A DNA stretch of 64,000 bases from Candidatus Heimdallarchaeota archaeon (GTDB taxonomy: Archaea; Asgardarchaeota; Heimdallarchaeia; Heimdallarchaeales; Heimdallarchaeaceae): contig JABCTC010000018.1 of NCBI GenBank assembly GCA_018238545.1, positions 6,310 through 70,309 on the forward strand. The letters are read 5' to 3'. This document shows positions 1-50,593 of the stretch, in pieces (the stretch's first letter is position 1; every line of letters starts with the position of its first letter). The position numbers were made by a program, and so were the translations under genes. Under the pieces are notes generated by a model that worked only from the letters and a program-made list of their open reading frames with translations, did no database searches and was not told the origin of the DNA.

Positions 1-222
1 TTTCCAGGACTAGTAATGGGAGCAGCTTTCGGATTCGGGTTGGTGGGATTATTCATCTGGACAACGAAGAACTTCTTCTACTCAGGAATGGGCTTTAAGG
101 TAGTAATAGCGCCAATGGCACTGATTATCAGTTTTGTAATAGCACCTGTGTTATTCTATGCATTATTCTACTATGCGATGAAGAGAAATTATGCGAGGTA
201 TTTACCAAGGAATTTGGAGTGA
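1..222 (+). CDS. ABC transporter permease, FtsX-like, C-terminal fragment (5' end lies upstream of window)
   Basis: Open frame from position 1. The C-terminus (...FYYAMKRNYARYLPRNLE) is clearly homologous to the C-terminus of the 1432-aa permease at 18742..23040 (...YYISMKRNFAKYQPRNLE). The stop overlaps the start of the downstream ATPase. Confidence 0.7.
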   Translation, partial: FPGLVMGAAFGFGLVGLFIWTTKNFFYSGMGFKVVIAPMALIISFVIAPVLFYALFYYAMKRNYARYLPRNLE

Positions 223-1964
223 TAAAAATGATAAGATGCGTAGACCTAATTAAAATATATCACGATCCTATTACAGAATATAAGGTATCGGCATTGCGTG
301 GACTCGACTTAGATGTCGAAGATGGAGAACTTGCATCGATCATCGGTCCCTCGGGGGCTGGTAAATCGACTTTAATCAACATACTCTCAGGAATGGATAC
401 TCCTACAGGAGGATTAGTGTTAATAAAAGGTGTTCAGATAGACAGACTAACTGAGAAGCAAAGAAGAGATTTCAGGTACAATAACATAGGTTTAGTAAAT
501 CAGTTTACAAGCAGGAATTTGTTCAGTAACCTAACCGTAAGAGAAAATCTGATAATGCCTATGAAAATGAGTTTTATGCCAAGAGGAGAACAGAAAAGTG
601 AAGCAAACGAATTGCTAGATTTGTTCAACTTGACACATGTAAAAGACAACAAAGCAACGAAAATCTCAGGTGGGGAGTCAATGCGATTGTCAGTAGCCAT
701 TGCTTTAGCACGTAAACCTCATTTTGTTCTTGCTGACGAGCCTACTGGGCAACTAGACAGCAAAAACACGTTTGAAATTATTGACACTTTGAAGAGCGTA
801 AACAAAGAACTGGGAACGACTATTTTGATCGTTACTCACGATGTCAGATATAGAGGAATTTTCAAGAAAAGTTTTCTCATCAGAGACGGCAGATTAGTTG
901 GTGTTGGTCAAGATATGAAAAGACAGCAACTAGATTTTCTCAAAGATGCTTCCGTTCTTAACCGAGTCTATATTGATCCCTCTAACTCTATGCGCATTCC
1001 TGACAGAATCAAATCATCTGTTGCTTTGCGTGATGCAGCTGAACTTGAAGTTCATCCTTCTAAGAAACTTGCACTTATGTGGAACCCAGATTTGGTAAGT
1101 AAAGAAGACGTGATTGAAATCTTGAAACAACCACCTGATCAGTGGACTGAAACTAAGGATGAGATTACATTTGAAGATGTAGAATATCTATTTGATCGTC
1201 AATTTAAGCCAAATCCTGATGCTAAAACTTTGATTAAAGTAAAGAATGTTCAGAAAGGATACAAGATTTTTGGTAAAATTAACCCCGTAATAAAGGGTAT
1301 TGATTTAGAGATCAATGAAGGCGATCTAGTGTTTATTTCTGGCCCAAGTGGGGTAGGAAAGACAACTCTTCTAAATCTTATTGCTGGATTAATCAAGCCC
1401 GATAAAGGTAGAATAAACATTGGAAAAAATAACATCTCGAAGATGGATGACACAAAAGTTTCTGATTTTAGACTAGCAAATATAGCCTATATAACTCAAT
1501 ATCACAGTTTGTTTGAACCCATACAACTTGAAGATAACTTACTTATTCCTTATCTTTTCCAAGGAATACCCTTTGATCAAGAATATGCTACTTACATTAC
1601 TCAACAATGTCATATAGATCACAAACTTCTATCCTATCCAGATGAATTATCTGCTGGAGAAAAACAACGTGCCACACTGTCACTAGCTCTTACAAGAAAA
1701 ACACCAATACTCTTAGCAGACGAACCTACAGCTAATATGGACAGTGATCTAGCAAGATCTGTCATGGATACCTTAATGGATGTTGTCGAAGAGAATAATA
1801 CAACGTTTCTCATGTGTAGCCACGATCTTTCTTTACTCCGACCAGGTTTTCGTCATATTAAAATTTCTGATGGCTTAGTTGTAGAAGATGCTAGAATCAC
1901 TAAACGTTCTCTCAAGAAGATTCTAAGAGAATATCTTCAAATCGAAGACGAGAAAAAAGGCTAA
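219..1964 (+). CDS. ABC transporter ATP-binding protein with two fused NBDs
   Basis: Two complete nucleotide-binding domains. The first has Walker A GPSGAGKST, signature ISGGESMRL, Walker B FVLADEPTGQLD and H-loop VTHD. The second has GPSGVGKTT, LSAGEKQRA, ILLADEPTANMD and CSHD. A GTG at 219 overlaps the upstream stop; the ATG at 228 is an alternative start. Paralog of 17003..18736. Confidence 0.9.
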   Translation: MIKMIRCVDLIKIYHDPITEYKVSALRGLDLDVEDGELASIIGPSGAGKSTLINILSGMDTPTGGLVLIKGVQIDRLTEKQRRDFRYNNIGLVNQFTSRNLFSNLTVRENLIMPMKMSFMPRGEQKSEANELLDLFNLTHVKDNKATKISGGESMRLSVAIALARKPHFVLADEPTGQLDSKNTFEIIDTLKSVNKELGTTILIVTHDVRYRGIFKKSFLIRDGRLVGVGQDMKRQQLDFLKDASVLNRVYIDPSNSMRIPDRIKSSVALRDAAELEVHPSKKLALMWNPDLVSKEDVIEILKQPPDQWTETKDEITFEDVEYLFDRQFKPNPDAKTLIKVKNVQKGYKIFGKINPVIKGIDLEINEGDLVFISGPSGVGKTTLLNLIAGLIKPDKGRINIGKNNISKMDDTKVSDFRLANIAYITQYHSLFEPIQLEDNLLIPYLFQGIPFDQEYATYITQQCHIDHKLLSYPDELSAGEKQRATLSLALTRKTPILLADEPTANMDSDLARSVMDTLMDVVEENNTTFLMCSHDLSLLRPGFRHIKISDGLVVEDARITKRSLKKILREYLQIEDEKKG

Positions 1965-32081: not shown

Positions 32082-32543
32082 ATGGATGTGAATTTGAACA
32101 CAAAGTCGAGGCTGAAAAACTTTACTGTACCTTCCAAACCACCGTTGTTACGCTTCACAATAATTGATTTAAGCGGGGTTACAGTTTATCACAGGTCATA
32201 CGTTAGTGAAGTCCTGGATGAAGTATTGTTTTCTGGTTTTAGTGCGGCTATGATTGCGTTTTCAAGAGAATTAGGGACACAACTATATTGTATCAAAATG
32301 GAAGGAGTTGATTATTATTTCAAAACTAAGGGAGATTTCATCTTTGTTGTAGGTATGTATCCTCGCGTTCGTTCACCTAGTGCTAAACGCTTTCTTAGAT
32401 TAATAGATAAAGAAATCAATTGGCAAGAGATTGACAAATATCTCAACAAAGCAATTCATTTTCAAACAGAGGAATTTGAGAAAAGAGTTGAACAAACTAT
32501 CTTAGATTTTCAAATCAGATTCAAACACATAATTAGAGATTAG
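32082..32543 (+). CDS. Hypothetical protein, possible roadblock/LC7 (MglB/longin-like) fold
   Basis: Pattern FTIIDLSGVTVYHRS...SGFSAAMIAFSRELG...LYCIKMEGVDYYFKTKGDFIFVV fits the roadblock beta-alpha-beta layout (vlvd.dG.via ... laa..aal ... i.ie.e.g.l...g...Lvv). Weak, and based on composition and pattern only. Confidence 0.35.
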   Translation: MDVNLNTKSRLKNFTVPSKPPLLRFTIIDLSGVTVYHRSYVSEVLDEVLFSGFSAAMIAFSRELGTQLYCIKMEGVDYYFKTKGDFIFVVGMYPRVRSPSAKRFLRLIDKEINWQEIDKYLNKAIHFQTEEFEKRVEQTILDFQIRFKHIIRD

Positions 32544-40013: not shown

Positions 40014-41933
40014 TTGAATGATACAACTCCAAAGTATAAAGGGTATAGAAATCAAGTTTTGGTTATAGATTTAACAAAAAATAAAATTGAAAAAAAAGCT
40101 CTAGGCATCTCTCTAGTTGAAAATTATCTAGGAGGGCGGGGTATAGCGATCAAATATCTTTTTGACAATCTTGAGCAGGGTATTGATCCTCTAAGTCCTG
40201 AAAACATTCTTGTTATAGGAACGGGCCCACTTACTGGGACTTTGGCCCCGTCTTCAAATCGCTATACGATTGCTGCTAAATCCCCGTTAACTGGAGGAAT
40301 CGGTTATGCGAATGCTGGTGGGCATTTTGCGCCTGAGCTAGCCTATGCTGGATATGATGCTATTTTCATCCATGGAAGAGCAAAAACACCCGTATATATT
40401 CAAATTGAGGATGATGTTGTTAAGATTCAAGATGCTCAACATCTCTGGGGAAAAGATGTTTGGGAGACAGATGAGTATTTCAGAGAAAAACTTGGTGAGG
40501 AAATACAAATCCTATCTATTGGTCAAGGAGGAGAAAATCTTGTCCGTTATGCTGCTATTTTAAACAACCTCTCTCGAGCAGCTGCAAGAACTGGTGTTGG
40601 CGCTGTAATGGGTTCTAAAAACCTTAAAGCTATCACAGTTCAAGGTTCGGGGGTTGTAGAAGTTAATGATGCTGAAAAATTTGACGCATTAATTGATGAA
40701 ACTTTGGAGAAAATTTATGCTGATCCTGCTTACCCCAGTTTGTCCTATTATGGGACATCCTTTCTTGTAGATCTTGCATATATTAGTGGTGGATTAGCTA
40801 CAAGGAATCACCAAACAGGCATTTTTGAACACTATGAAGAGATATCAGCGGAAACCTTTGATGAAAAATACAAAGTAAAATCGGAAAGTTGCTTTGCATG
40901 TCCAATTCATTGTGGGAAATACTCCAAAGTAACTACAGGGAAGTACGCAGGTACAAAAGGAGGTAGCCCAGAATATGAAACAGTTGTTTGTTTAGGCTCA
41001 AAGTGTGGTGTAGGAAACCTTGCTGCAATACATCATGCAAATGAACTTTGTAACAAATATGGTATAGACACAATTTCTGCTGGGGATGTCATTGCTTTTG
41101 CAATGGAAGCATATGAAAAAGGAGTGTTTACAAAAGAAGATACTGATGGATTGGAACTTGTGTGGGGGAATGAGGATGCTATGATAGAGTTGATAAAGAA
41201 AATCGCTTTTAGAGACGGGATAGGTAATTTACTAGCAGAAGGATCCAAGAGAATAGCAGCAAAAATCAATAAGGGTTCTGAAGATTATGCTCATCATATA
41301 AAGGGGATGGAACCACCTGCATACGATGTAAGAACTGCTAAAGCATTTGGATTGGGATGGGCAACTGCAACCAGAGGAGCGGATCATCTTGCAGCTTTAC
41401 CAAATTTTGAACTACTCGGATACGAACCTGAAGTTGGCGTTGAGTGGTTCGGTTCAGAAAAAGCAGTTGATCCTCATGCGTGGGAAAGTAAACCTCGGAT
41501 GGTTGTCTGGCATGAAAATTTAGGTGCGATTGTAGATTCAGCTGAAATGTGTAAATATACTTGTTTCTCAGCTTATGCCGTGAAACCTGAAGACATGGCC
41601 AGATTTATTGCATATGGAACAGGTATGGAATTGAATGCTAAAGATCTTATGAGGATAGGAGAAAGAATCTACAATTTAGAACGATTATTCAATTTAAGAG
41701 AAGGGATAGGAAAAGATCAAGATAGGTTACCAAAAAGATTTACTGATGAGCCTCTACCAGAAGGTCCAGCTAAAGGGCAAGTTGTAGAACTGGATAAAAT
41801 GTTACCCGATTATTACAAACTCCGAGGATGGGATTGGGAAACAGGATATCCAACAAAAGAGAAATTGCTAGAACTTGGATTAATAGAAGAAGCAGAAAAA
41901 TATAATTTGGTATCAAGGAGGAATGGACAATGA
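40014..41933 (+). CDS. aor: Tungsten-containing aldehyde:ferredoxin oxidoreductase
   Basis: Near-collinear similarity to the Pyrococcus AOR N-terminus: GRGIAIKYLF...DPLSPENILVIGTGPLTG...KSPLTGG...AGYDAIFIHGRAKTPVY...GVGAVMGSKNLKAI. Conserved cluster and pterin ligand regions are present (CFACPIHCGK). Confidence 0.92.
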   Translation: MNDTTPKYKGYRNQVLVIDLTKNKIEKKALGISLVENYLGGRGIAIKYLFDNLEQGIDPLSPENILVIGTGPLTGTLAPSSNRYTIAAKSPLTGGIGYANAGGHFAPELAYAGYDAIFIHGRAKTPVYIQIEDDVVKIQDAQHLWGKDVWETDEYFREKLGEEIQILSIGQGGENLVRYAAILNNLSRAAARTGVGAVMGSKNLKAITVQGSGVVEVNDAEKFDALIDETLEKIYADPAYPSLSYYGTSFLVDLAYISGGLATRNHQTGIFEHYEEISAETFDEKYKVKSESCFACPIHCGKYSKVTTGKYAGTKGGSPEYETVVCLGSKCGVGNLAAIHHANELCNKYGIDTISAGDVIAFAMEAYEKGVFTKEDTDGLELVWGNEDAMIELIKKIAFRDGIGNLLAEGSKRIAAKINKGSEDYAHHIKGMEPPAYDVRTAKAFGLGWATATRGADHLAALPNFELLGYEPEVGVEWFGSEKAVDPHAWESKPRMVVWHENLGAIVDSAEMCKYTCFSAYAVKPEDMARFIAYGTGMELNAKDLMRIGERIYNLERLFNLREGIGKDQDRLPKRFTDEPLPEGPAKGQVVELDKMLPDYYKLRGWDWETGYPTKEKLLELGLIEEAEKYNLVSRRNGQ

Positions 41934-42430
41934 CTGAACAATTAGTTAAGAGGCGTATCTTTGCACAAAAAGAAAAGTGTAATGGATGTCGAATATGTGA
42001 ATTGAGATGCTCATTTTATCATGAAAAATTATATGCCCCCTCACATTCTAGAATTAGAGTAAAAAAGGTAGAAATCGAGGGAACGGCCATCCCAGAAACC
42101 TGTAGATTATGCTATAAGTGCATTGAATCATGCCCAGAAGATGCAATATCAAAGTCAGAGATAACAGGAGCTATTCAAATTGATGAACAAAAATGTACAG
42201 GTTGTGAGGAGTGCGTGAAAGCTTGTCCTTTTGGAGTTATGCACATGCACCCAGTTTCTAATATTGCTATGACTTGTGATCTATGTGATGGTAACCCTCA
42301 ATGTGTGATATATTGCCCTGAAACAGCTTTACATTATATGACAGCTAAAGAATTTTCTGAATATAAGAAAAAAGAAAAAGAAAATATTGAAGCTGGTCGA
42401 GTTCCAAAATTTTCCCCTATACCTGAGTGA
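41930..42430 (+). CDS. 4Fe-4S ferredoxin-domain protein (polyferredoxin, AOR-associated)
   Basis: Four Cys clusters: CNGCRICELRC, CRLCYKCIESCP, CTGCEECVKACP and CDLCDGNPQCVIYCP. The ATG overlaps the aor stop (ATGA), and a strong SD (AGGAGG) lies 9 nt upstream. Confidence 0.85.
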   Translation: MTEQLVKRRIFAQKEKCNGCRICELRCSFYHEKLYAPSHSRIRVKKVEIEGTAIPETCRLCYKCIESCPEDAISKSEITGAIQIDEQKCTGCEECVKACPFGVMHMHPVSNIAMTCDLCDGNPQCVIYCPETALHYMTAKEFSEYKKKEKENIEAGRVPKFSPIPE

Positions 42431-42441
42431 AAAATAATTTT

Positions 42442-42726
42442 CTACCCACCAGCTATAGCGGGCATAATTACAAACATATCTTCATCTTCTAATTTAGTAT
42501 GAAAACCATCCAGCAAATTGATGTTTCGACCATTCACAATAATACGATAAATAGATTTTATTTTCCCTAATTCATCAAATAATTCATCCTTCAACTCTTT
42601 ACCATACTCCTCAAGAAGTTTATCAAGTAAATCTTCAACAGATTCAGCTTCCATAGTGAACTGTTTTTTACCAATTATCTTCTTAATATTAGCAAAAGTT
42701 ATGACGTTGATTACGCTCATTAGCAT
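42442..42726 (-). CDS. MoaD/ThiS-family ubiquitin-like protein (C-terminal Gly-Gly)
   Basis: Protein of about 92 aa ending ...MPAIAGG, with the beta-grasp pattern (...ESVEDLLDKL...IVNGRNINLLDGFHTKLEDEDMFVIMPAIAGG). Plausibly the sulfur carrier for tungstopterin synthesis, or a SAMP. Confidence 0.7.
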   Translation of the reverse strand: MLMSVINVITFANIKKIIGKKQFTMEAESVEDLLDKLLEEYGKELKDELFDELGKIKSIYRIIVNGRNINLLDGFHTKLEDEDMFVIMPAIAGG

Positions 42727-42805: not shown

Positions 42806-44521
42806 TTATTCTACCTCATCTTCTTCTTGAATCTTATCTTTTAGCTGCTTCAATTCATTTTTCAGATCAATTATATCTTCTTTCAGATTATTCATTTCAT
42901 AATCTAGCTCATGGATATCCTTGGTAATTTTGCTAACTTTCTTAAAATCATCTTCAGAATCTATTTGACACAGCATAGTTTTTTGTATGCTTAATTCTGT
43001 TTCTAATTCTTTATACAAGGTCTCTAATTGCTTATCCTTGAGCATAATTTCTTCCCGTGTTCTCTCTAACCTTCCTCTCTCCTTCTTCAATTTCTTAATA
43101 AGTTCAAGAAGCTCGCTACGACATTTCTCAAGATCTGTTTTGTTGCTTACTGAGTTATCTTGACAATCACAAATATCTTCATCTAATTTTTCTAGCTCTT
43201 TTTCATATTTCTTTATTTTCTTTTCATCAGTTTCTGTAGCTAGCAATATCTTAATCTCTTTCATGTCTCGCTCTTTTTCTTTGATTTCTGTTTTTAATTC
43301 ACTTATATCTTCTTTGTATTTTTGCTCAGTTTTGTTATACTTCTCTATCTCTTTCTCAAGATCCTCGATTTTCTTTTCAAATTCCTTTAGCTCTTTATCC
43401 TTATCTGAGGATGTGAGTTTTACCTCTTCGATTTGATTATTAAGTGTAAGTATTTCATGTTCAATTTGAGCGAATTTATCAAAATCTTCCTTAATGTCGA
43501 CAATTTCTTTTAGATTCTTTTCCTTTTCTAGCTTAGCTTCTAATTCCTTGTATCTCTCTTGTATTTGAAGATCTTTAGATTGGATTTCAATTTCTACACT
43601 AGTAATCCTACTTTTGTCAGCTTCTAGCTTCTGTTTAAGATTATCGAGTTCGATCTTTATGTCTAGAACTTTTTGTTCGGCAATCTCGGATTTCTCTGCA
43701 ATTTCCTCAGTTTCTGCAATTAGAACCTGAAGTTTAGATGCATCCTTTTCTTCTTCAGGAGCGTTTTCTAATATTTGTTTCTTTTTGTTATTTTCACGTA
43801 AAGTTCGATTCAAATCCTTAACAGTATCTTGTTTGATTTTGACCTCTTTAGAGACCAACTCAATTCTTTCCTCTTCAAGAACAAGTTTATCCTTAATTTG
43901 TGATGTTTCTTCTACTGACTGTTCTTTTTCAACTTCTAATTTTTTGATACTATCTGTTAATTCTTGGATTTCTAGCTCGATTTTTTCTATATTTGATATA
44001 TCTGATTTGGATGCGCCTAATAGGGTTTGAAGTTCTTTCTGTTTAGCTAATTTCTCATCCATGTTTTCATAAAGATGCTTTAAATCTCTATCTTTCCTTC
44101 GAATATCTCGTTCGATCAAATCCATTTGACCTATATCCATTAATTTCTCAATTTTTGTGACATACCTCTTGATAGAATTGATTTGAAGTTCTCCGTCAAC
44201 AACAAGTTTTCTAAAAAACAATGCTAAATTAGAGTTTTCACCAAGTCTTATGAAAAGAATGTCAACACTTTCAGTATCGAATAATAACTGAGTATAATTT
44301 TTGAAATCATAATTACAAATTTCATAGAGTTTTCTGAAGCTAGAAAGAATATCAGCTAAATCTTCACCTAGTTTTGGTATGTTTACTGATTCTTCAAATT
44401 GCTCAAATGTGGTTTGAAAAACTGTTCCATCGTCGAAAAACATAGCTATGTGTTCGACTTCTGGGAGTGCTCTTCTAATTCTATCTATTGTTTTATGTAT
44501 TTTTTGTGCCATTTTTTTCAC
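42806..44521 (-). CDS. Roadblock/LC7-like N-terminal domain fused to a long coiled-coil region of about 450 aa
   Basis: N-terminus EHIAMFFDDGTVFQTT...DLADILSSF...LLFDTESVDILFIRLGENSNLALFF fits the roadblock pattern. The remainder is E/K/L-rich heptad-like sequence throughout. The start is either the GTG at 44521 or the ATG at 44512, 1-10 nt from the upstream permease stop. Confidence 0.6.
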   Translation of the reverse strand: MKKMAQKIHKTIDRIRRALPEVEHIAMFFDDGTVFQTTFEQFEESVNIPKLGEDLADILSSFRKLYEICNYDFKNYTQLLFDTESVDILFIRLGENSNLALFFRKLVVDGELQINSIKRYVTKIEKLMDIGQMDLIERDIRRKDRDLKHLYENMDEKLAKQKELQTLLGASKSDISNIEKIELEIQELTDSIKKLEVEKEQSVEETSQIKDKLVLEEERIELVSKEVKIKQDTVKDLNRTLRENNKKKQILENAPEEEKDASKLQVLIAETEEIAEKSEIAEQKVLDIKIELDNLKQKLEADKSRITSVEIEIQSKDLQIQERYKELEAKLEKEKNLKEIVDIKEDFDKFAQIEHEILTLNNQIEEVKLTSSDKDKELKEFEKKIEDLEKEIEKYNKTEQKYKEDISELKTEIKEKERDMKEIKILLATETDEKKIKKYEKELEKLDEDICDCQDNSVSNKTDLEKCRSELLELIKKLKKERGRLERTREEIMLKDKQLETLYKELETELSIQKTMLCQIDSEDDFKKVSKITKDIHELDYEMNNLKEDIIDLKNELKQLKDKIQEEDEVE

Positions 44522-44522
44522 A

Positions 44523-45992
44523 TTATGAAATAATTAAAGATCTGAATCTATTTATCCCTCGACTAATATTCGATTTTGCCTGTTCAGTACCAAATTTGGA
44601 GATTATAAAAAGTATTCCAATTGATAGAAGAACAGCGAAAATCATAATCAAACCGACGTAGTATGTATCTATTGAAAAGAAAGTAAAATAGGCTGTGCCT
44701 AAGTATAATTGAAGAAGTGTTGTAGTAAATCCTAGTTTCCAAAAGGTTTTCATTTTTATTGGACGATTGTGTTGTTCAGCAATATTGAGAACAAGGATAT
44801 TGTCACCTAGAGGAGTCAAATTATCTCCCCAATTTGCACCCACTGAGAGTCCATAGAAGACACTTGCATTAGTATTCATAGCTTGTACAAGAGGTATCAT
44901 AACCTTGGTAATTGGTATATTATCTATCAAAGAACTGAGAAATGCAGATAACCATACCAATATTATGATTTGAAATGTAGGATTAATTGAACTAATTCCG
45001 CCAAGCAGATTACCTAAGAGATCGATAATTCCAACAGTTTCCATAGCTCCAGCTAGAACGAATATACCTAGTAAATAGAGTATCAATTCTAAATCAAAGT
45101 TTTTTATGATTTCCTTTGGTTTTATACCAAAAATTGCACTAAAGATTGTTAATATCATCGCTACAGTAAATGCGAAGATATCGGGAGGAACAGCATCTGC
45201 TGGGATTACAGGTCCAATTAGTACGAAACCTACCATTAAGATCCCTATACTAGCCATTGACGCATACAGTAGTTTTTTACTCTGCACAAAATTCCAAACA
45301 TTGAATTCATCTAAGGTATCTACTAATCTTTGTCTTGGACTATCACGGAAATCTTTCCAATACATAAATATGAAAAACAGCAAAGTAATTCCAGCCATTG
45401 CCATCGAGAATAAACCTACATTAAGAAAATATTCTATAAAAGTAATTTCAGCAGCTGTTACTATGAGGATGTTAGGGATAGAGGATATAGAAAAGAATGT
45501 CCCACCTATATTTACTAAAATTGCTTCAGTCAAAATATATGGTGTTGGATCTATTTTTAGAATACGAGATATAGTGATAGTGAGTGGAATCAGTATCATC
45601 ACTGTCAAAATATTGTTAATAACAGCAGAGAATAGCACTGATATTGTACAGAGAATTGACATTAGAGCGATAGGTTTGCCTTTAGAGAGTTTTATCGCAA
45701 GTATGCCTAGAAACTGAAATAAACCTGCTTCAGCTGAAACTTGAACAATAAACATCATGCCAAGAATTAGGATCAAAGAATGAAGGTTAACAAAACCATC
45801 TGTAGGAGTTCCGAATAATAGATCAACAATAATGGAAAAATCTTTTCCTTCTATAAATATTAAAACAAAATAAGTTACTACCGCAGCTGTAAGAGAAGCT
45901 ACAGCTCTATTTAGTTTATCAGAGAAAATTAGAAAAATGACGATAAAAAAGCAGAAAGCGATAATTATCTGACTTGCTAAAATTTCATTCAC
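44523..45992 (-). CDS. Polytopic membrane permease (ArsB/NhaD-type ion transporter superfamily-like)
   Basis: 489 aa with about 12 hydrophobic segments and an internal-repeat architecture. Classification is by size and topology only. Confidence 0.5.
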   Translation of the reverse strand: MNEILASQIIIAFCFFIVIFLIFSDKLNRAVASLTAAVVTYFVLIFIEGKDFSIIVDLLFGTPTDGFVNLHSLILILGMMFIVQVSAEAGLFQFLGILAIKLSKGKPIALMSILCTISVLFSAVINNILTVMILIPLTITISRILKIDPTPYILTEAILVNIGGTFFSISSIPNILIVTAAEITFIEYFLNVGLFSMAMAGITLLFFIFMYWKDFRDSPRQRLVDTLDEFNVWNFVQSKKLLYASMASIGILMVGFVLIGPVIPADAVPPDIFAFTVAMILTIFSAIFGIKPKEIIKNFDLELILYLLGIFVLAGAMETVGIIDLLGNLLGGISSINPTFQIIILVWLSAFLSSLIDNIPITKVMIPLVQAMNTNASVFYGLSVGANWGDNLTPLGDNILVLNIAEQHNRPIKMKTFWKLGFTTTLLQLYLGTAYFTFFSIDTYYVGLIMIFAVLLSIGILFIISKFGTEQAKSNISRGINRFRSLIIS

Positions 45993-46243
45993 CTATCTAA
46001 TTCATTGAACACTCTAAATAGCTATTTAATTAAACAAATAGACCAATTATTTTGTCTTCACACGAGAGTTGCAAAGATAGTTATAAAACATTCCGAAAAG
46101 ACAGTTGAATTCTTAAGTAACTATAGATGAGTAAAAAAAATTAAATTTATTTTTGTATTTCTTTCTTCAATAATTTGGAAGTAAGGAAATAACCTGTAAA
46201 AAAATCAAAATAAAAAGGGGGAGAAAAAAAGAAAAAATAAAGT

Positions 46244-49200
46244 TTAATTTCTTCTTTTTCTTAAAGCAAAAGTTAGAGCTAGAAGTGTAAGTACAGAAGC
46301 GAATAGAAAAATACTCGATTGGTTAGTGTCTTCAGGATGATCTTCTGGATCGGTAGGATCGGTACCATAAGTAAACAATTCTTCACTATCACTCCAACCA
46401 TCACCATCAGTATCAGAATTGTTGGGATTAGTGTTTTGATAATACTCGTCTAAATTGGTTAAAGTATCACCATCAGGATCGTAACCTGCATCATTGACTG
46501 AAGGATCAAGGCCATTATCGACTTCCCAACCGTCAGGCATGCCATCGTAGTCAGAATCAGTGCTATTTGGGTCAGAATTGTAAGAATATTCTTCGAGATT
46601 AGTCAAACCGTCACCATCAAGATCTGAAGAAGCATCAGAAGGATTTAATGGGTCAAGACCATTATCATATTCCCAACCATCGGGCATCAAATCATCATCA
46701 GTGTCACTGTCGAGAGGATCTGTATTAGTATTCATATATTCCTCGTAGTTAGATAAACCATCCGCGTCAGGATCTTCACCACCATCATGAACAAGAGGAT
46801 TTGTGCCATATTCAACTTCCCAGTCATCCCACATCGAGTCATAATCTGTGTCCCAATATTGAGGATTAGTTCCATGAGTATATTCTTCAAGGTTAGTCAA
46901 TGTATCGCCATCAGGATCTAAAGCAGAATCATCGGATAAAGGATTGAGACTATTGTCGACTTCCCAGCCATCAGGCATCAAATCATCATCAGAATCGGAA
47001 TCTTGAGGGTCAGTACCAATGGTATATTCGTCCAAATTATACAATCCATCACTATCAAGGTCAGAATATGCATCATCAACCAAAGGGTTGAGAGTGTTAT
47101 CAACTTCCCAGCCGTCAGGCATGGAATCACCATCTGTGTCGTCGTTATTTGGATCAGTGTTATTAGTATATTCTTCAAGGTTAGTCAATGTATCGCCATC
47201 AGGATCTAAAGCAGAATCATCAATCTCAGTATTCAGTCCATGTTGGTCTTCCCAGATATCATTCATTCCATCGTTATCAAAATCGTAAAATGAGGGATAA
47301 TCAGTGTTATCAGTAGGGTCAGTACCAAGTGTAACTTCTAAACCATCATTAAATCCATCATCGTCTGAATCAGTATCTAGAGGATAAGTACCAATAGTAT
47401 ATTCTTCAAGATTAGTTAAATCATCACTATCAGGATCTAAAGAAGAATCATCAACGAGAGGATTAAGACCGTTATCAACTTCCCAGCCGTCAGGCATGGA
47501 ATCACTATCTGTATCACTATCATTTGGATTAGTTCCCCAAGCAATTTCTTCATCATCCAAAAGCCCATCATCGTCTGAATCAGCGTCATTTGGATCAGTG
47601 TCATTAGTATATTCTTCAAGATTAGTTAAATTATCACTATCGGAATCTAAAGAAGAATCATCAACAAGAGGGTTGAGGCCGTTATCTACTTCCCAGCCAT
47701 CGGGAATTAAATCATTGTCTGAATCAGCGTCATTTGGATCAGTGTTATTAGTATATTCTTCGAGATTGGTTAAATCGTCACTGTCTGGATCTAATGAAGC
47801 ATCAGAAGCATCTAGTGGGTTAAGACTATTATCAACTTCCCAGCCATCTAGCATTAAATCATTGTCTGAATCAGCGTCATTTGGATCAGTGTCATTAGTA
47901 TATTCTTCAAGGTTGGATAAACCATCACTATCGGAATCTAAAGAAGAATCATCAACAAGAGGATCGAGACCATTATCAACTTCCCAACCATCAGGCATCA
48001 AATCATCATCAGAATCAACGTCATTTGGATTAGTTCCAGCTACTACTTCTTCATTATCTAATAGTCCATCACCGTCTGAGTCTGGGTCGAGAGGGTCGGT
48101 GCCCGCAGTATATTCTTGAAGATTAGTCAATGTATCGCCATCAGGGTCTAATGCAGAATCATCAACAAGTGGGTTGAGACTATTGTCCACTTCCCAACCA
48201 TCAGGCATGCCATCGTCATCTGAGTCGGAATCATTGGGGTCGGTTCCAGCTGCTACCTCTTCATTATCAAGTAGTCCATCATTGTCGGAATCATTATCGT
48301 TTGGATCAGTATCATTAGTATATTCTTCAAGGTTAGTCAATGTATCGCCATCAGGATCTAAAGAAGAATCATCAACAAGAGGATCGAGACCATTATCAAC
48401 TTCCCAACCATCAGGCATCAAATCGTCATCAGAGTCGGAATCTTGAGGGTCAGTACCATTAGTATATTCGCCTAAATTGTCCAAACCATCACTATCAGGA
48501 TCTAAAGAAGAATCATCAACTAAGGGATTAAGACCATTGTCCACTTCCCAATTATCTGGCATCAAATCATCGTCAGAATCGTTGTCATTGGGGTCGGTAT
48601 TATTTGTGTATTCTTCGATATTGGTTAAACCGTCACCATCTGGATCTAAAGAAGAATCATCAACTAAAGGATCGAGACCATTGTCGACTTCCCAGCCATC
48701 GGGCATTAAATCATCATCAGAGTCATTATCATTGGGATCTGTTCCTTGAATATATTCACCATAATTATCCAAACCATCACTATCAGGATCTAAAGAAGAA
48801 TCATCAACCAAAGGATTAAGGCTGTTATCAACTTCCCAGCCATCAGGCATCAAATCGTTGTCTGTGTCATTGTCGTTTGGATCGGTTCCAGCTACAATCT
48901 CTTCATTATCTAAGAGTCCGTCATCATCAGAGTCATTGTCATGGGGGTCAGTGTTATTTGTATATTCTTGGAGGTTGGTCAGACTATCTCCATCAGGATC
49001 TAAAGCAGAATCATCAACGAGAGGATCGAGACCATTATCGACTTCCCAACCATCGGGCATGGAATCGCTATCTGTGTCATTGTTGTTAGGGTCTGTTCCA
49101 TATAGATATTTTTCTTCTCTATCATCTATCCCATCATTATCTGTATCTATTACGTTCAATGGGTAGAGGTCTACTCCGTTTCCTGGACCGCTTATTGCAT

Positions 49201-50593
49201 AAGTTCCTGTTTCATTCCAATTTGACCAATAATTTCCTTCATTTGTATTCACGTCATACCAAGTATTTACTGTATCACCGTACGCTTGTGAATCTTGCCC
49301 TATACTGTTGTTTATGAAGATATTATGATATATTCTGTTAGGGTTGGAACCGCCTAAATATAATCCATAACCATATTCCGATACTTCATTATAATTGTTT
49401 ACAAAAATATTGTTAGTTATATTGGAATAACTTGCCCAAAATGTATGTAGTCCATATCCATTGTTCTTACTACATGTATTATTATCAATGATAGAATAAT
49501 AAGGACCTAAGATATATATTCCAGCGTTGCTGTTATTCTCACAAGTATTATTTGTAACTACATTACTTGAATACCTAAGATACATTCCATAGATGTCGTT
49601 GTTATTGCAAGTGTTGTTGGTTACAGTTGTAGAATCAGATTCATAGACATATATCCCTGAATTGTCATTATTTGCACAGGTATTGTTCGCAACATTTGTA
49701 TTTGCAGCATATTCAATATAGATTCCATTCACATTTCCTGTACAAGTATTTTCTGCAACAGTTGGAGAAGAAGAAGCTTCAGCAATATGAATTCCGTTAT
49801 TACCGTTGTTCTCAATAGTATTGTTTCTTATTTCAGGATAAGCTGTCCAACGAATTCGTAGCCCATACCCAGTATTTTCTGAACAGGTATTGTCAGTCAC
49901 AGTTGCATTATTACCATTATAATCGATATATATACCTAGAGCATTACTTTCACAAGTATTGTTATCAATGATTACTGATGCACTATTATAACTGTATATT
50001 CCATTGCCTGAATTGTTTGAGCATATGTTGTTTGTTATGGTAGAATTAGTTGATTTCCATAGAACAATACCATCAGTATTGTCTGTACATACATTCCCGT
50101 CAATTGTAGTATTCAGACTTTGCAGTATGTACATTCCATATTGAGCATTATTTGCACAAGTATTATTTATTACTTTAGCTGTTCCCGCAGCAACACCAGT
50201 GATACGTATTCCATAGTTCAATCCATCTAAATAATTATCACGAATAACAAAATGCATTGTCGTACCTGTAACGTAAATAGCTGTGTCGTCAGTTGTTGTA
50301 ATGTTATAATTATTTATTATATACGGATCACCTTCACTTCCATCCCCTGAAGTACTAGAAGCTGCCAAAGTAGCATTATTCCATATATAAATATCTTCTG
50401 TAAGTTCTACGTAAGCCATCTTATTATAGTCTTGATCGTTAGGCATGTATACTTCACTATCAAAACTAGGTTCTACTGTGCTTGTATTAACCAAATTGAA
50501 ACTGATTGCAACACTCATAACTAAGCACAAAGCCAGAAAAATTGAAACTCCTTTTTTATAGGATCCAAAATATTTTTTTAAATTATTTATCAC
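46244..50593 (-). CDS. Giant cell-surface protein: signal peptide, right-handed beta-helix (NosD/pectin-lyase-like) domain, about forty EF-hand-like Ca-binding repeats, C-terminal TM anchor
   Basis: N-terminal hydrophobic signal (ISIFLALCLVMSVAISF). Residues 100-470 have repeated NNTC.(N)N..GIYI beta-helix rungs. Residues 480-1410 are tandem units of about 45 aa alternating DSDDDLMPDGWE and DPDGDGLTNLEEY, each fitting the 12-residue EF loop D-x-D-x-D-G-x-x-x-x-x-E. C-terminus SSIFLFASVLTLLALTFALRKRRN. Confidence 0.85.
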   Translation of the reverse strand: MINNLKKYFGSYKKGVSIFLALCLVMSVAISFNLVNTSTVEPSFDSEVYMPNDQDYNKMAYVELTEDIYIWNNATLAASSTSGDGSEGDPYIINNYNITTTDDTAIYVTGTTMHFVIRDNYLDGLNYGIRITGVAAGTAKVINNTCANNAQYGMYILQSLNTTIDGNVCTDNTDGIVLWKSTNSTITNNICSNNSGNGIYSYNSASVIIDNNTCESNALGIYIDYNGNNATVTDNTCSENTGYGLRIRWTAYPEIRNNTIENNGNNGIHIAEASSSPTVAENTCTGNVNGIYIEYAANTNVANNTCANNDNSGIYVYESDSTTVTNNTCNNNDIYGMYLRYSSNVVTNNTCENNSNAGIYILGPYYSIIDNNTCSKNNGYGLHTFWASYSNITNNIFVNNYNEVSEYGYGLYLGGSNPNRIYHNIFINNSIGQDSQAYGDTVNTWYDVNTNEGNYWSNWNETGTYAISGPGNGVDLYPLNVIDTDNDGIDDREEKYLYGTDPNNNDTDSDSMPDGWEVDNGLDPLVDDSALDPDGDSLTNLQEYTNNTDPHDNDSDDDGLLDNEEIVAGTDPNDNDTDNDLMPDGWEVDNSLNPLVDDSSLDPDSDGLDNYGEYIQGTDPNDNDSDDDLMPDGWEVDNGLDPLVDDSSLDPDGDGLTNIEEYTNNTDPNDNDSDDDLMPDNWEVDNGLNPLVDDSSLDPDSDGLDNLGEYTNGTDPQDSDSDDDLMPDGWEVDNGLDPLVDDSSLDPDGDTLTNLEEYTNDTDPNDNDSDNDGLLDNEEVAAGTDPNDSDSDDDGMPDGWEVDNSLNPLVDDSALDPDGDTLTNLQEYTAGTDPLDPDSDGDGLLDNEEVVAGTNPNDVDSDDDLMPDGWEVDNGLDPLVDDSSLDSDSDGLSNLEEYTNDTDPNDADSDNDLMLDGWEVDNSLNPLDASDASLDPDSDDLTNLEEYTNNTDPNDADSDNDLIPDGWEVDNGLNPLVDDSSLDSDSDNLTNLEEYTNDTDPNDADSDDDGLLDDEEIAWGTNPNDSDTDSDSMPDGWEVDNGLNPLVDDSSLDPDSDDLTNLEEYTIGTYPLDTDSDDDGFNDGLEVTLGTDPTDNTDYPSFYDFDNDGMNDIWEDQHGLNTEIDDSALDPDGDTLTNLEEYTNNTDPNNDDTDGDSMPDGWEVDNTLNPLVDDAYSDLDSDGLYNLDEYTIGTDPQDSDSDDDLMPDGWEVDNSLNPLSDDSALDPDGDTLTNLEEYTHGTNPQYWDTDYDSMWDDWEVEYGTNPLVHDGGEDPDADGLSNYEEYMNTNTDPLDSDTDDDLMPDGWEYDNGLDPLNPSDASSDLDGDGLTNLEEYSYNSDPNSTDSDYDGMPDGWEVDNGLDPSVNDAGYDPDGDTLTNLDEYYQNTNPNNSDTDGDGWSDSEELFTYGTDPTDPEDHPEDTNQSSIFLFASVLTLLALTFALRKRRN
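46360..49160 (-). repeat. Tandem coding repeats (thrombospondin-type-3-like / EF-loop calcium-binding units)
   Basis: About 20 near-identical units of about 135 nt. These produce the spurious Ser-rich antisense ORFs on the + strand (47496..48119 and others). Confidence 0.8.

Follow-up and report, generated by a model that had tools for sequence, protein, structure and literature searches.

What might a protein that joins a Roadblock-like domain to a long coiled coil do when its gene lies directly behind that of a polytopic permease in an Asgard archaeon? The question is raised by a two-gene locus in a 64,000-nucleotide stretch of a Candidatus Heimdallarchaeota contig (JABCTC010000018.1; hereafter the window), where both open reading frames described in an earlier note were confirmed in the sequence on the minus strand (Table 1). 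At their junction, which reads TCA TAA T GTG AAA AAA ATG, the permease stop codon is followed by a GTG after a 1-nt gap and by an ATG after a 10-nt gap, in agreement with the spacing of 1-10 nt proposed in that note. The ATG at 44512 is the likely start of the second gene, with a predicted product of 568 aa, because orthologues start with MVQKTIDRI. Across the window and the loci inspected, the two genes either overlap or have 1-14 nt between stop and start codon (for the called genes at loci L001-L005, L088, L090, L093 and L094, 7-14 nt or an overlap), and the spacing of the junction appears compatible with translational coupling. The region upstream of the permease gene presumably contains the promoter of the two-gene unit.

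Table 1. Features of the permease-roadblock locus, given as positions in the window, with residues of the second gene product numbered from GTG 44521.
Feature	Positions	Strand	Description
Intergenic region upstream of permease	45993..46243	-	251 nt, AT-rich; presumed promoter region
Permease gene	44523..45992	-	489 aa; first gene of the pair
Gene junction	44510..44525	-	permease stop TAA 44525-44523, GTG 44521-44519, ATG 44512-44510
Roadblock and coiled-coil gene	42806..44521	-	571 aa from GTG 44521; second gene of the pair
Roadblock/LC7/MglB-fold domain	44117..44521	-	residues 1-135
Coiled-coil stalk	42809..44116	-	residues 136-571, 436 aa
LLGAS kink	44009..44023	-	residues 167-171, ~35 residues into the stalk, conserved
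Acidic heptad break	43718..43759	-	residues 255-268; holds the only Pro of the tail
Cys motif C451-D-C453	43163..43171	-	within the coiled coil; CxC here, CxxC in sister species

The N-terminal ~100 aa of the second gene product had been assigned from the sequence to the roadblock/MglB fold, and structure prediction bears this out. An AF2 model of the N-domain based on a 29-sequence alignment (pLDDT 77, pTM 0.73) has the topology a-b-b-a-b-b-b-a (H2-18, E22-29, E34-37, H48-68, E78-81, E86-92, E97-104 and H118-134), corresponding to the roadblock order a1-b1-b2-a2-b3-b4-b5(-a3), and the top 50 Foldseek matches of this model were exclusively MglB, Roadblock and LAMTOR structures. V4R, the alternative fold named in advance, was absent from the structural matches. 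Given that the structural similarity to solved roadblock domains is significant, the modelled N-domain belongs to the Roadblock/LC7/MglB superfamily at the fold level. In sequence comparisons, the window copy has no match to Pfam Robl_LC7 (PF03259) at E<=1, 8 of 29 orthologue N-domains match it weakly (best 6.5e-5), 3 of 22 full-length members match it (best 4.2e-6), and one homologue (P0046) carries a precomputed PF03259 annotation. PDB sequence searches with the N-domain alone or with the family profile found no roadblock, and structure comparison alone succeeded. Weak matches to Pfam ABC_sub_bind (15 of 29 N-domains, best 1.2e-3) were judged spurious given the unambiguous fold evidence. Among orthologues, the roadblock loop motifs NIPKLG and LGENSN are invariant.

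A 153-aa ORF elsewhere in the window (32082..32543), previously taken for a second, stand-alone roadblock, proved to be something else. Its AF2 model (pLDDT 75) displays the b-b-a-b-b-b-a-a topology of longin domains, and its Foldseek matches comprise COPI zeta/delta, AP sigma, Fuzzy, Sec22b and Mon1-Ccz1 (E 6e-6 to 1e-3). No similarity to the roadblock domain was found by BLASTP or hhalign, and paralogy between the two was rejected. On the predicted structure it is a longin domain, which shares a broad superfamily with roadblock domains and is not itself one.

The first gene of the pair encodes, judging from its sequence, a clear member of the ion-transporter superfamily, a CitMHS/ArsB/NhaD-like polytopic membrane protein (Pfam CitMHS, PF03600: 4.9e-47, 161.1 bits against a cut-off of 31.9, residues 20-377). 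It has 13 charge-free hydrophobic stretches, two of them hairpin-like, so that its initial description as a 12-TM permease is a fair approximation. Scores against the NCBIfam models for MamN (NF040989; 119.9 bits against a cut-off of 500) and ArsB (68 bits against 457, and 60 against 760) identify it as neither, and an ars operon context is absent around the gene. Among solved structures, the permease family profile matched ArsB (7e-19) and VcINDY/DASS transporters (1e-8). The hairpin-like motifs SSIPN (170-174) and NWGDNLTPLGDN (387-398) are invariant across 24 Asgard orthologues, which argues for an active transporter. The best 120 permease matches share at least 51% identity, every source-named one among them being Asgard, and the permease constitutes an Asgard-specific orthologous group.

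Comparison across genomes revealed that the two genes remain together throughout the Asgard archaea. The permease orthologue adjoins the roadblock gene on the same strand at 80 of 80 GTDB species loci and at 12 other loci, representing the Heimdall, Hod, Hermod, Loki, Thor, Odin and Hel lineages and including divergent members of Helarchaeota and a tail-less member of 128 aa; the pairing was recovered as well when the search began at the permease side. The operon-like coupling first proposed for the window alone is much strengthened by this comparison, the genes being neighbours at every one of more than 90 loci, in all sampled Asgard lineages. Gene order is swapped yet adjacency kept at three loci (L062, L070 and L092), and at two others (L030 and L073) both genes have been duplicated together. 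Identities between Asgard phyla are comparable for the N-domain (~45-55%) and the permease (~51-57%), and both partners are under strong purifying selection. The family is also narrow, consisting of 70 cluster representatives among 1.84 billion proteins, with all named members Asgard. Clustering of the flanks of the 80 loci showed that only the permease and roadblock genes are universal; other flanks are unconserved, and no third conserved partner emerged.

In the flanks, CorA turns up repeatedly, at ~15 Loki-type loci, and three unknown genes are shared among Loki/Thor loci alone. No natural permease-roadblock fusion was found among family members; the one candidate, P0232, in which the permease C-terminus runs into the roadblock N-terminus, is a gene-caller read-through: in the DNA a TGA separates the two genes in frame, a second stop is present, and the contig has 1.5x coverage. 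Similarly, the shortness of the 73-aa "truncated" partner in CP070760 stems from a run of N in the sequence and not from a mutation.

The tail of the roadblock protein had been described as 450 aa of uninterrupted coiled coil, a description that holds for the coiled coil but not for its continuity. With 1 Pro, 2 Gly, 49% E+K+D+R and 21% L+I, the tail (residues 136-571) displays a heptad contrast of 0.685 against 0.41±0.03 in 200 shuffles (maximum 0.49) and a Fourier peak at 3.43-3.57 residues, and would extend ~65 nm as a single parallel dimer without breaks. It is interrupted by the LLGAS kink (G169 in 19 of 23 long forms; S171 at least 90% conserved), by the acidic break, whose E/D-rich block is conserved in the long-form alignment and which includes the sole low-score stretch of the heptad scan (262-268), and by the Cys motif. 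Matches of the tail to SMC, Rad50 and ASRP proteins reflect coiled-coil composition only: scores against NCBIfam SMC/Rad50 models are at most 36 bits against cut-offs of at least 567, coiled-coil regions alone align, and a roadblock occupies the N-terminus while ATPase heads, including any C-terminal head, are absent.

Stalks fall into three length classes, namely absent, ~80 aa (most lineages) and ~436 aa. The long form is found in 22 Heimdallarchaeaceae-type species, 21 of them with proteins of 558-571 aa and one of 411 aa, which align almost indel-free (gaps in only 23 of 439 columns, L012 excluded). The ~440-aa tail is a clade-specific expansion; the ancestral or typical protein has ~210 aa and an 80-aa coiled coil, some members being tail-less. 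Therefore, the invariant feature of the system is the roadblock domain with the permease, not the long coiled coil. No DNA tandem repeats were found that would indicate an origin of the long tail by internal duplication, and an all-vs-all hhalign comparison of tail segments gave probabilities of 69-98% throughout, a non-discriminating result typical of coiled-coil bias.

The most likely interpretation is that the roadblock protein acts as a dimer in the cytoplasm, as an adaptor or regulator dedicated to a dimeric permease. DASS/IT transporters are dimeric elevators, and the permease would likewise be an active, homodimeric secondary transporter of the elevator type (ArsB/NhaD/CitMHS/DASS kind) moving a putative substrate across the membrane. 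Its partner would dimerise via the roadblock domain and a parallel coiled coil, tight translational coupling would ensure its synthesis in matched amounts, and the roadblock platform would dock on the cytoplasmic face of the permease dimer in a presumed 2:2 arrangement. By analogy with MglB and Ragulator, the platform may be the surface on which a switch protein from the cytoplasm binds; the numerous small GTPases of Asgard archaea are the likeliest source of such a switch, which would read or control the transport state in a "transceptor"-like arrangement, with the direction of regulation running either way. The coiled coil would be an accessory stalk of lineage-specific length, and in the Heimdallarchaeaceae-type clade the length-conserved ~65 nm stalk may space or tether the complex relative to another cell structure. 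To this reading as a whole, in which the two genes encode two parts of one membrane complex that is read by a GTPase and bears a lineage-specific stalk, we assign a probability of roughly 0.45.

The GTPase step of this scheme is drawn purely by analogy. The 64-kb window contains no small-GTPase P-loop ORF, and no GTPase gene cluster was detected in the flanks of the 80 loci. Asgard GTPases are generally not found in operons with roadblock genes (Tran et al., PMC10933270), and since the two are generally unlinked, a missing linked GTPase is no objection to the proposed step, yet it offers no support.

An adaptor might also function in the absence of any switch protein. Small-molecule binders of the GAF and profilin-like kinds have folds related to that of roadblock domains, and RCK/TrkA-C domains gate other members of the ion-transporter superfamily; the roadblock domain could in a similar role bind a metabolite or ion and gate the permease allosterically, with the coiled coil merely stabilising the dimer. 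We regard such a ligand-sensing gate as unlikely, given that roadblocks of the GTPase-platform type, and not GAF domains, make up all of the best structural matches, that the invariant residues appear to lie in loops and helix a2 with no obvious pocket, and that a length-conserved stalk of 436 aa would be left unexplained.

Alternatively, the main role of the permease could be that of a receptor at the membrane for a stalk of the golgin or Rad50-hook kind, which through its cysteines would pair with another stalk or capture a membrane or filament, thereby organising the envelope, protrusions or internal membranes. It is indeed ruler-like that 21 species retain a length of 558-571 aa even as tail identity drops to 30%, 20 of 22 long forms have Cys453 accompanied by another Cys at -2 or +3 (a conserved CxC/CxxC arrangement inside the coiled coil), and the only NCBIfam similarity of the stalk is to SMC/Rad50-type coiled coils. 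In Rad50 the zinc hook holds Zn between two chains by means of a CxxC, located at the apex of a coiled coil that is antiparallel; the Cys motif may be a similar hook, although it lies ~118 aa before the C-terminus, asymmetrically in the tail and not at a symmetric apex, and is missing in L029 and L030. Furthermore, most Asgard lineages have a coiled coil of ~80 aa and some none, yet keep the pairing, and tethering is therefore not the ancestral function. The permease, with its transporter motifs still invariant, is also no degenerate anchor. Taken together, these observations make a tether as the main function somewhat less probable still than a ligand-sensing gate.

Translational coupling directly after the permease and the strictness of the pairing would also suit a biogenesis factor, that is, an assembly or membrane-targeting chaperone for the permease that stays outside the mature complex, much as the SRX domain of the SRP receptor is roadblock/longin-like. 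A long, length-conserved coiled coil is unexpected for a chaperone, and Pfam and NCBIfam searches revealed no similarity to known insertion factors; we consider this role very improbable. That the genes are functionally unrelated and simply share a transcript has the least to recommend it, for the pairing outlasts order inversion and unit duplication among more than 90 loci whose other neighbours all differ.

Thus understood as a transporter with its adaptor, the pairing points to an undescribed complex in those prokaryotes that are most closely related to eukaryotes. The searchable literature yielded no description of a roadblock-permease pairing, nor a paper on the combination of roadblock, coiled coil and membrane transporter, as the earlier note had supposed. 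Roadblock proteins, longin proteins and small GTPases number in the dozens in Asgard archaea, and hardly any has a known partner, because their genes are rarely found in operons (PMC10933270; bioRxiv 10.1101/2020.10.19.343400). One roadblock family is now tied to an identifiable membrane partner in every lineage examined, and a two-protein system that can be expressed and reconstituted provides a means of testing what an Asgard roadblock platform binds or regulates. Recruitment of a GTPase by the platform would mean that GTPase signalling coupled to transporters at membranes is older than eukaryotes; if the protein is only a gating subunit, it would still represent a new class of regulatory partner for ArsB/CitMHS/SLC13-type transporters. 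The clade-specific, length-conserved stalk of ~65 nm would in addition be a rare probable molecular ruler or tether in a eukaryote-related archaeon.

Among known systems, the Ragulator/LAMTOR-Rag-SLC38A9 complex mediates lysosomal nutrient sensing in eukaryotes, SLC38A9 having an APC fold and lipidated LAMTOR1 anchoring Ragulator. The transporter fold of the Asgard pair is unrelated, the anchor of Ragulator is a lipid and not a coiled coil, the pair has no linked Rag-like GTPase, and the homology recognised goes no further than the shared fold. It would be a considerable stretch to view the pair as an ancient Asgard-wide "transceptor" read by a small GTPase, corresponding in prokaryotes to SLC38A9-Ragulator-Rag and perhaps anticipating its logic, with a stalk that in Heimdallarchaeaceae is a length-calibrated ~65 nm tether with a Cys hook linking it to another membrane or cytoskeletal structure. 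The short forms resemble longin-SNAREs (Sec22b, Ykt6, VAMP7) in joining an a/b domain of ~125 aa to a coiled coil of ~80 aa in ~210 aa overall. The partner N-domain, in contrast, has the roadblock strand order in its AF2 model, and the protein lacks a TM segment, lipid anchor or hydrophobic C-terminus; with roadblock topology, no SNARE motif and no Synaptobrevin/SNARE Pfam match among 22 members, identity with the longin-SNAREs was rejected.

The permease lies within the ArsB/NhaD/CitMHS/DASS/MamN superfamily, below the equivalog thresholds of MamN and ArsB, and we know of no characterised ArsB, NhaD, CitMHS, DASS (SLC13) or MamN family with a roadblock partner. The Streptomyces conservon, reportedly described by Komatsu and colleagues in 2006, is said to consist of the membrane sensor CvnA, the roadblock CvnB, CvnC and the GTPase CvnD. 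It too is a prokaryotic operon joining a membrane protein to a roadblock, and CvnB5 (3LEQ) is among the structural matches of the N-domain; it differs in gene number, with four genes that include those for a GTPase and a DUF742 protein, and in its membrane part, which is sensor kinase-like, whereas the Asgard unit has two genes and a transporter, its conserved neighbours being limited to the permease and roadblock genes. MglB is the bacterial Roadblock/LC7 GAP of the small GTPase MglA and is encoded beside mglA. It shares 10-14% identity with the Asgard roadblock partner, whose gene has no linked GTPase and which is thus not an MglB proper, and MglB lacks the long coiled coil and transporter partner that are both present in the Asgard pair. 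A further comparison is with the solved stand-alone Asgard Roadblock proteins from Thor (7F8M) and MK-D1 (7YH1, 9JUE and 9JQ8) (Tran et al. 2024, PMC10933270), which are single-domain proteins of ~110-120 aa with no reported operon partner and 12-20% identity to the present family. Unlike these, the partner family possesses a coiled-coil stalk and a fixed permease gene neighbour.

Comparison across genomes revealed that the permease gene and the gene encoding a roadblock domain fused to a coiled coil (hereafter the partner) form a conserved Asgard module, which is the main new result of this analysis. The family defined by the partner's N-terminal domain (residues 1-135) is small, comprising 62 database clusters and 70 representatives in a set of 1.84 billion proteins, and every named member is from an Asgard archaeon (Heimdall, Hod, Hermod, Loki/Promethearchaeota, Thor, Odin or Hel). 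Scanning one genome for each GTDB species yielded 110 relatives, from which 80 loci were retrieved; a permease orthologue adjoins the partner on the same strand in 80 of 80, these synteny counts resting on MAG contigs and on purpose-written ORF and tblastn scripts. The same adjacency was observed in seven loci obtained through exact protein matches, in two divergent Helarchaeota members and a tail-less member of 128 aa, and, when approached from the permease side, in the Asgard genomes Heimdall LC_3 and CP070760. Called genes of the pair are spaced by 7-14 nt or overlap, and adjacency is retained at three of the numbered loci of the comparison where gene order is inverted (L062, L070 and L092). 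Also identified were a tandem duplication of the entire pair (permease, partner, permease, partner; L030, 2523..8377), a permease and partner followed by a second permease reaching the locus end (L073), and two tandem permeases ahead of a single partner (L046 and L072). The operon-like coupling proposed in an earlier note on this sequence is thus borne out, as is the partner start 1-10 nt past the permease stop: the junction (TCA TAA T GTG AAA AAA ATG) places a GTG after 1 nt (44521) and an ATG after 10 nt (44512), the latter being the likelier start because orthologues begin MVQKTIDRI.

Features of the permease-partner pair and its surroundings in the window
Feature	Position (nt)	Partner residues	Strand	Description
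Predicted surface protein	46244..50593		-	1449 aa
Intergenic spacer				251 nt, AT-rich; upstream of pair, parting it from the surface-protein gene
Permease gene	44523..45992		-	489 aa; upstream gene of pair
Roadblock/coiled-coil (partner) gene	42806..44521	1-571	-	571 aa; downstream of permease gene
Clade insertion, b2-a2 loop	44384..44398	42-46	-	
LLGAS kink		167-171		Conserved
Acidic break		255-268		
Cys motif C451-D-C453	43163..43171	451-453	-	
MoaD/ThiS-like gene				79 nt downstream of pair; convergent
Longin-domain ORF (predicted)	32082..32543		+	153 aa; stand-alone, just upstream of phosphoglycerate kinase

The window has a G+C content of ~34%, and its nearest relatives are Heimdallarchaeota/Heimdallarchaeaceae MAGs; against one of these loci (L008, BPTM01000159.1) the N-terminal domain is 96% and the permease 90% identical. 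The stretch immediately downstream of the pair (40014..42726) comprises the convergent MoaD/ThiS-like gene, the gene of a tungsten-type aldehyde:ferredoxin oxidoreductase (AFOR_N/AFOR_C) and that of a 4Fe-4S protein, the last two overlapping by 4 nt. The surface protein on the other side consists of an N-terminal hydrophobic segment, NosD/PbH1-like beta-helix repeats, ~25 acidic tandem repeats (DSDDDLMPDGWEVDNGLDPLVDDSSLDPDGD..TNLEEYTN.TDP) with thrombospondin-type-3-like calcium-binding motifs, and a hydrophobic C-terminal anchor bearing a basic tail. In other genomes, a CorA Mg2+/Co2+ channel gene occurs at a distance of 0-4 kb from the pair in ~15 Loki-type loci (including L042, L043, L074, L064, L067, L054, L050 and L068) and, at the tail-less locus L090, immediately precedes the pair on the same strand, and three MscS-type channel genes lie near the pair at L003; these neighbours may hint at a role in cation homeostasis. 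Three genes without Pfam matches, encoding products of ~219 aa (coiled-coil-like), 55-73 aa and 189 aa, recur downstream only in Loki/Thor lineages (L003/L004, L006/L007, L037 and ~20 others). L064 (DATKTW010000125.1) is labelled 'Candidatus Nanopelagicaceae bacterium', yet possesses an Asgard-type pair and a Loki-like CorA, and is probably a mis-binned Asgard contig.

The permease matches Pfam CitMHS (4.9e-47, 161 bits) and, more weakly, ArsB. Among NCBIfam models, MamN (120 bits) scored higher than ArsB (68 bits), and both identities were ruled out by the respective cut-offs of 500 and 457. A profile of 24 Asgard orthologues matched the solved ArsB structure at 7e-19 and the VcINDY/DASS/SLC13 elevator transporters at 1e-8 and weaker. 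Thirteen hydrophobic stretches without charge were counted, making the earlier description of a 12-TM protein a fair approximation, and each of two stretches contains an invariant polar motif (SSIPN at 170-174 and NWGDNLTPLGDN at 387-398); these two resemble the superfamily's paired re-entrant hairpins. We concluded that the permease belongs to the ion-transporter superfamily and is, in all likelihood, an active transporter. It is strongly conserved, its identity across Asgard phyla being 51-57%; the best 120 database matches are all at least 51% identical, and all those with a source name are Asgard.

For the N-terminal domain of the partner, sequence methods barely detect the fold: the window's copy found no match in Pfam, nor in the PDB by sequence or profile search, and Robl_LC7 was matched weakly by 8 of 29 orthologous domains (best 6.5e-5), some family members being annotated 'Roadblock/LC7/MglB family' by JGI. 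The predicted structure settles the question in favour of the proposed roadblock/MglB fold. An AF2 model of medium confidence (29-sequence alignment; pLDDT 77, pTM 0.73) has the topology a-b-b-a-b-b-b-a, and its top 50 PDB matches in Foldseek are all MglB, Roadblock or LAMTOR; V4R, the alternative named previously, is absent from them. Weak matches to Pfam ABC_sub_bind (PF04392) were found in 15 of the 29 domains, more than for Robl_LC7, and probably reflect a local motif. A small insertion in the b2-a2 loop, right before the invariant NIPKLG (FEQFEESVNIPKLG vs FEQ-EINIPKLG), marks the Heimdallarchaeaceae-type clade and coincides with the long stalk. The stand-alone ORF at 32082..32543, earlier regarded as a second roadblock, has no detectable similarity to the partner's roadblock domain and is instead predicted, again with medium confidence (pLDDT 75), to be a longin domain; by fold it is matched best by COPI zeta/delta, AP sigma, Fuzzy/CPLANE, Sec22b and Mon1-Ccz1, and its family is restricted to Heimdallarchaeaceae-type genomes.

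The remainder of the partner (residues 136-571) is a real coiled coil, with one Pro, two Gly, 49% charged residues and 21% Leu+Ile. Its heptad contrast is 0.685, compared with 0.41±0.03 (maximum 0.49) in 200 shuffles, and its Fourier spectrum is strongest at 3.43-3.57 residues, the 7/3 harmonic being present as well. Contrary to the earlier claim, the tail is not strictly uninterrupted, being broken locally by the LLGAS kink, the acidic break and the Cys motif. Among the long forms, 20 of 22 orthologues have Cys453 (loci L008-L028), with a second Cys at -2 (CxC, the form of the window's subclade) or +3 (CxxC, in most other long forms). This motif recalls the Rad50 zinc hook, but is placed asymmetrically, ~118 aa from the C-terminus. 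The long form was found in 22 Heimdallarchaeaceae-type species, 21 at 558-571 aa and one at 411 aa, and gaps occupy just 23 of 439 tail columns despite identities down to 30-45%, suggesting selection on stalk length. Elsewhere the partner totals 204-225 aa (Loki, Thor, Hod, Hermod, Odin and LC_3-type Heimdall), ~250-310 aa (some lineages, Helarchaeota among them) or, without a tail, ~120-140 aa. Since stalk length differs between clades and is fixed within them, the long tail is a clade-specific elaboration, and what stays constant is the combination of roadblock and permease.

The roadblock fold and many Asgard roadblock paralogues are already well known (PMC10933270; PMC12962969; bioRxiv 10.1101/2020.10.19.343400), and the last of these studies names three core Roadblock/longin families together with a single conserved operon (LAMTOR1-like/Rab-like/DENN) in Asgard; the partner family is probably among the asCOGs already catalogued. 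In agreement with the earlier note, an Asgard roadblock with a transporter partner or coiled-coil fusion was not found in the literature at the level of full texts.

Together, the strict, rearrangement-resistant pairing, duplication as a unit, translational-coupling-type junction and similarly high conservation of both proteins point to a dedicated physical partnership. When all flanking ORFs were clustered, no other gene proved universal and no GTPase recurred, and no small-GTPase-like P-loop ORF was found within the 64-kb window. One rival explanation is a ligand-sensing gate independent of a GTPase. A tether anchored by the permease would suit the long form well, but this function cannot be ancestral. 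The partner might also be a biogenesis factor of the permease. Coincidental co-transcription is very unlikely. As to how a dedicated partnership might operate, roadblock domains are obligate dimers and ion-transporter-superfamily elevators are likewise dimers, so that, with a parallel coiled coil that would reinforce roadblock dimerisation, the simplest model is a 2:2 complex presenting a roadblock platform at the cytoplasmic face of the permease. The analogous MglB-MglA and Ragulator-Rag systems suggest that this platform may bind a switch protein, most likely a small GTPase, and link it to the transport state of the permease.
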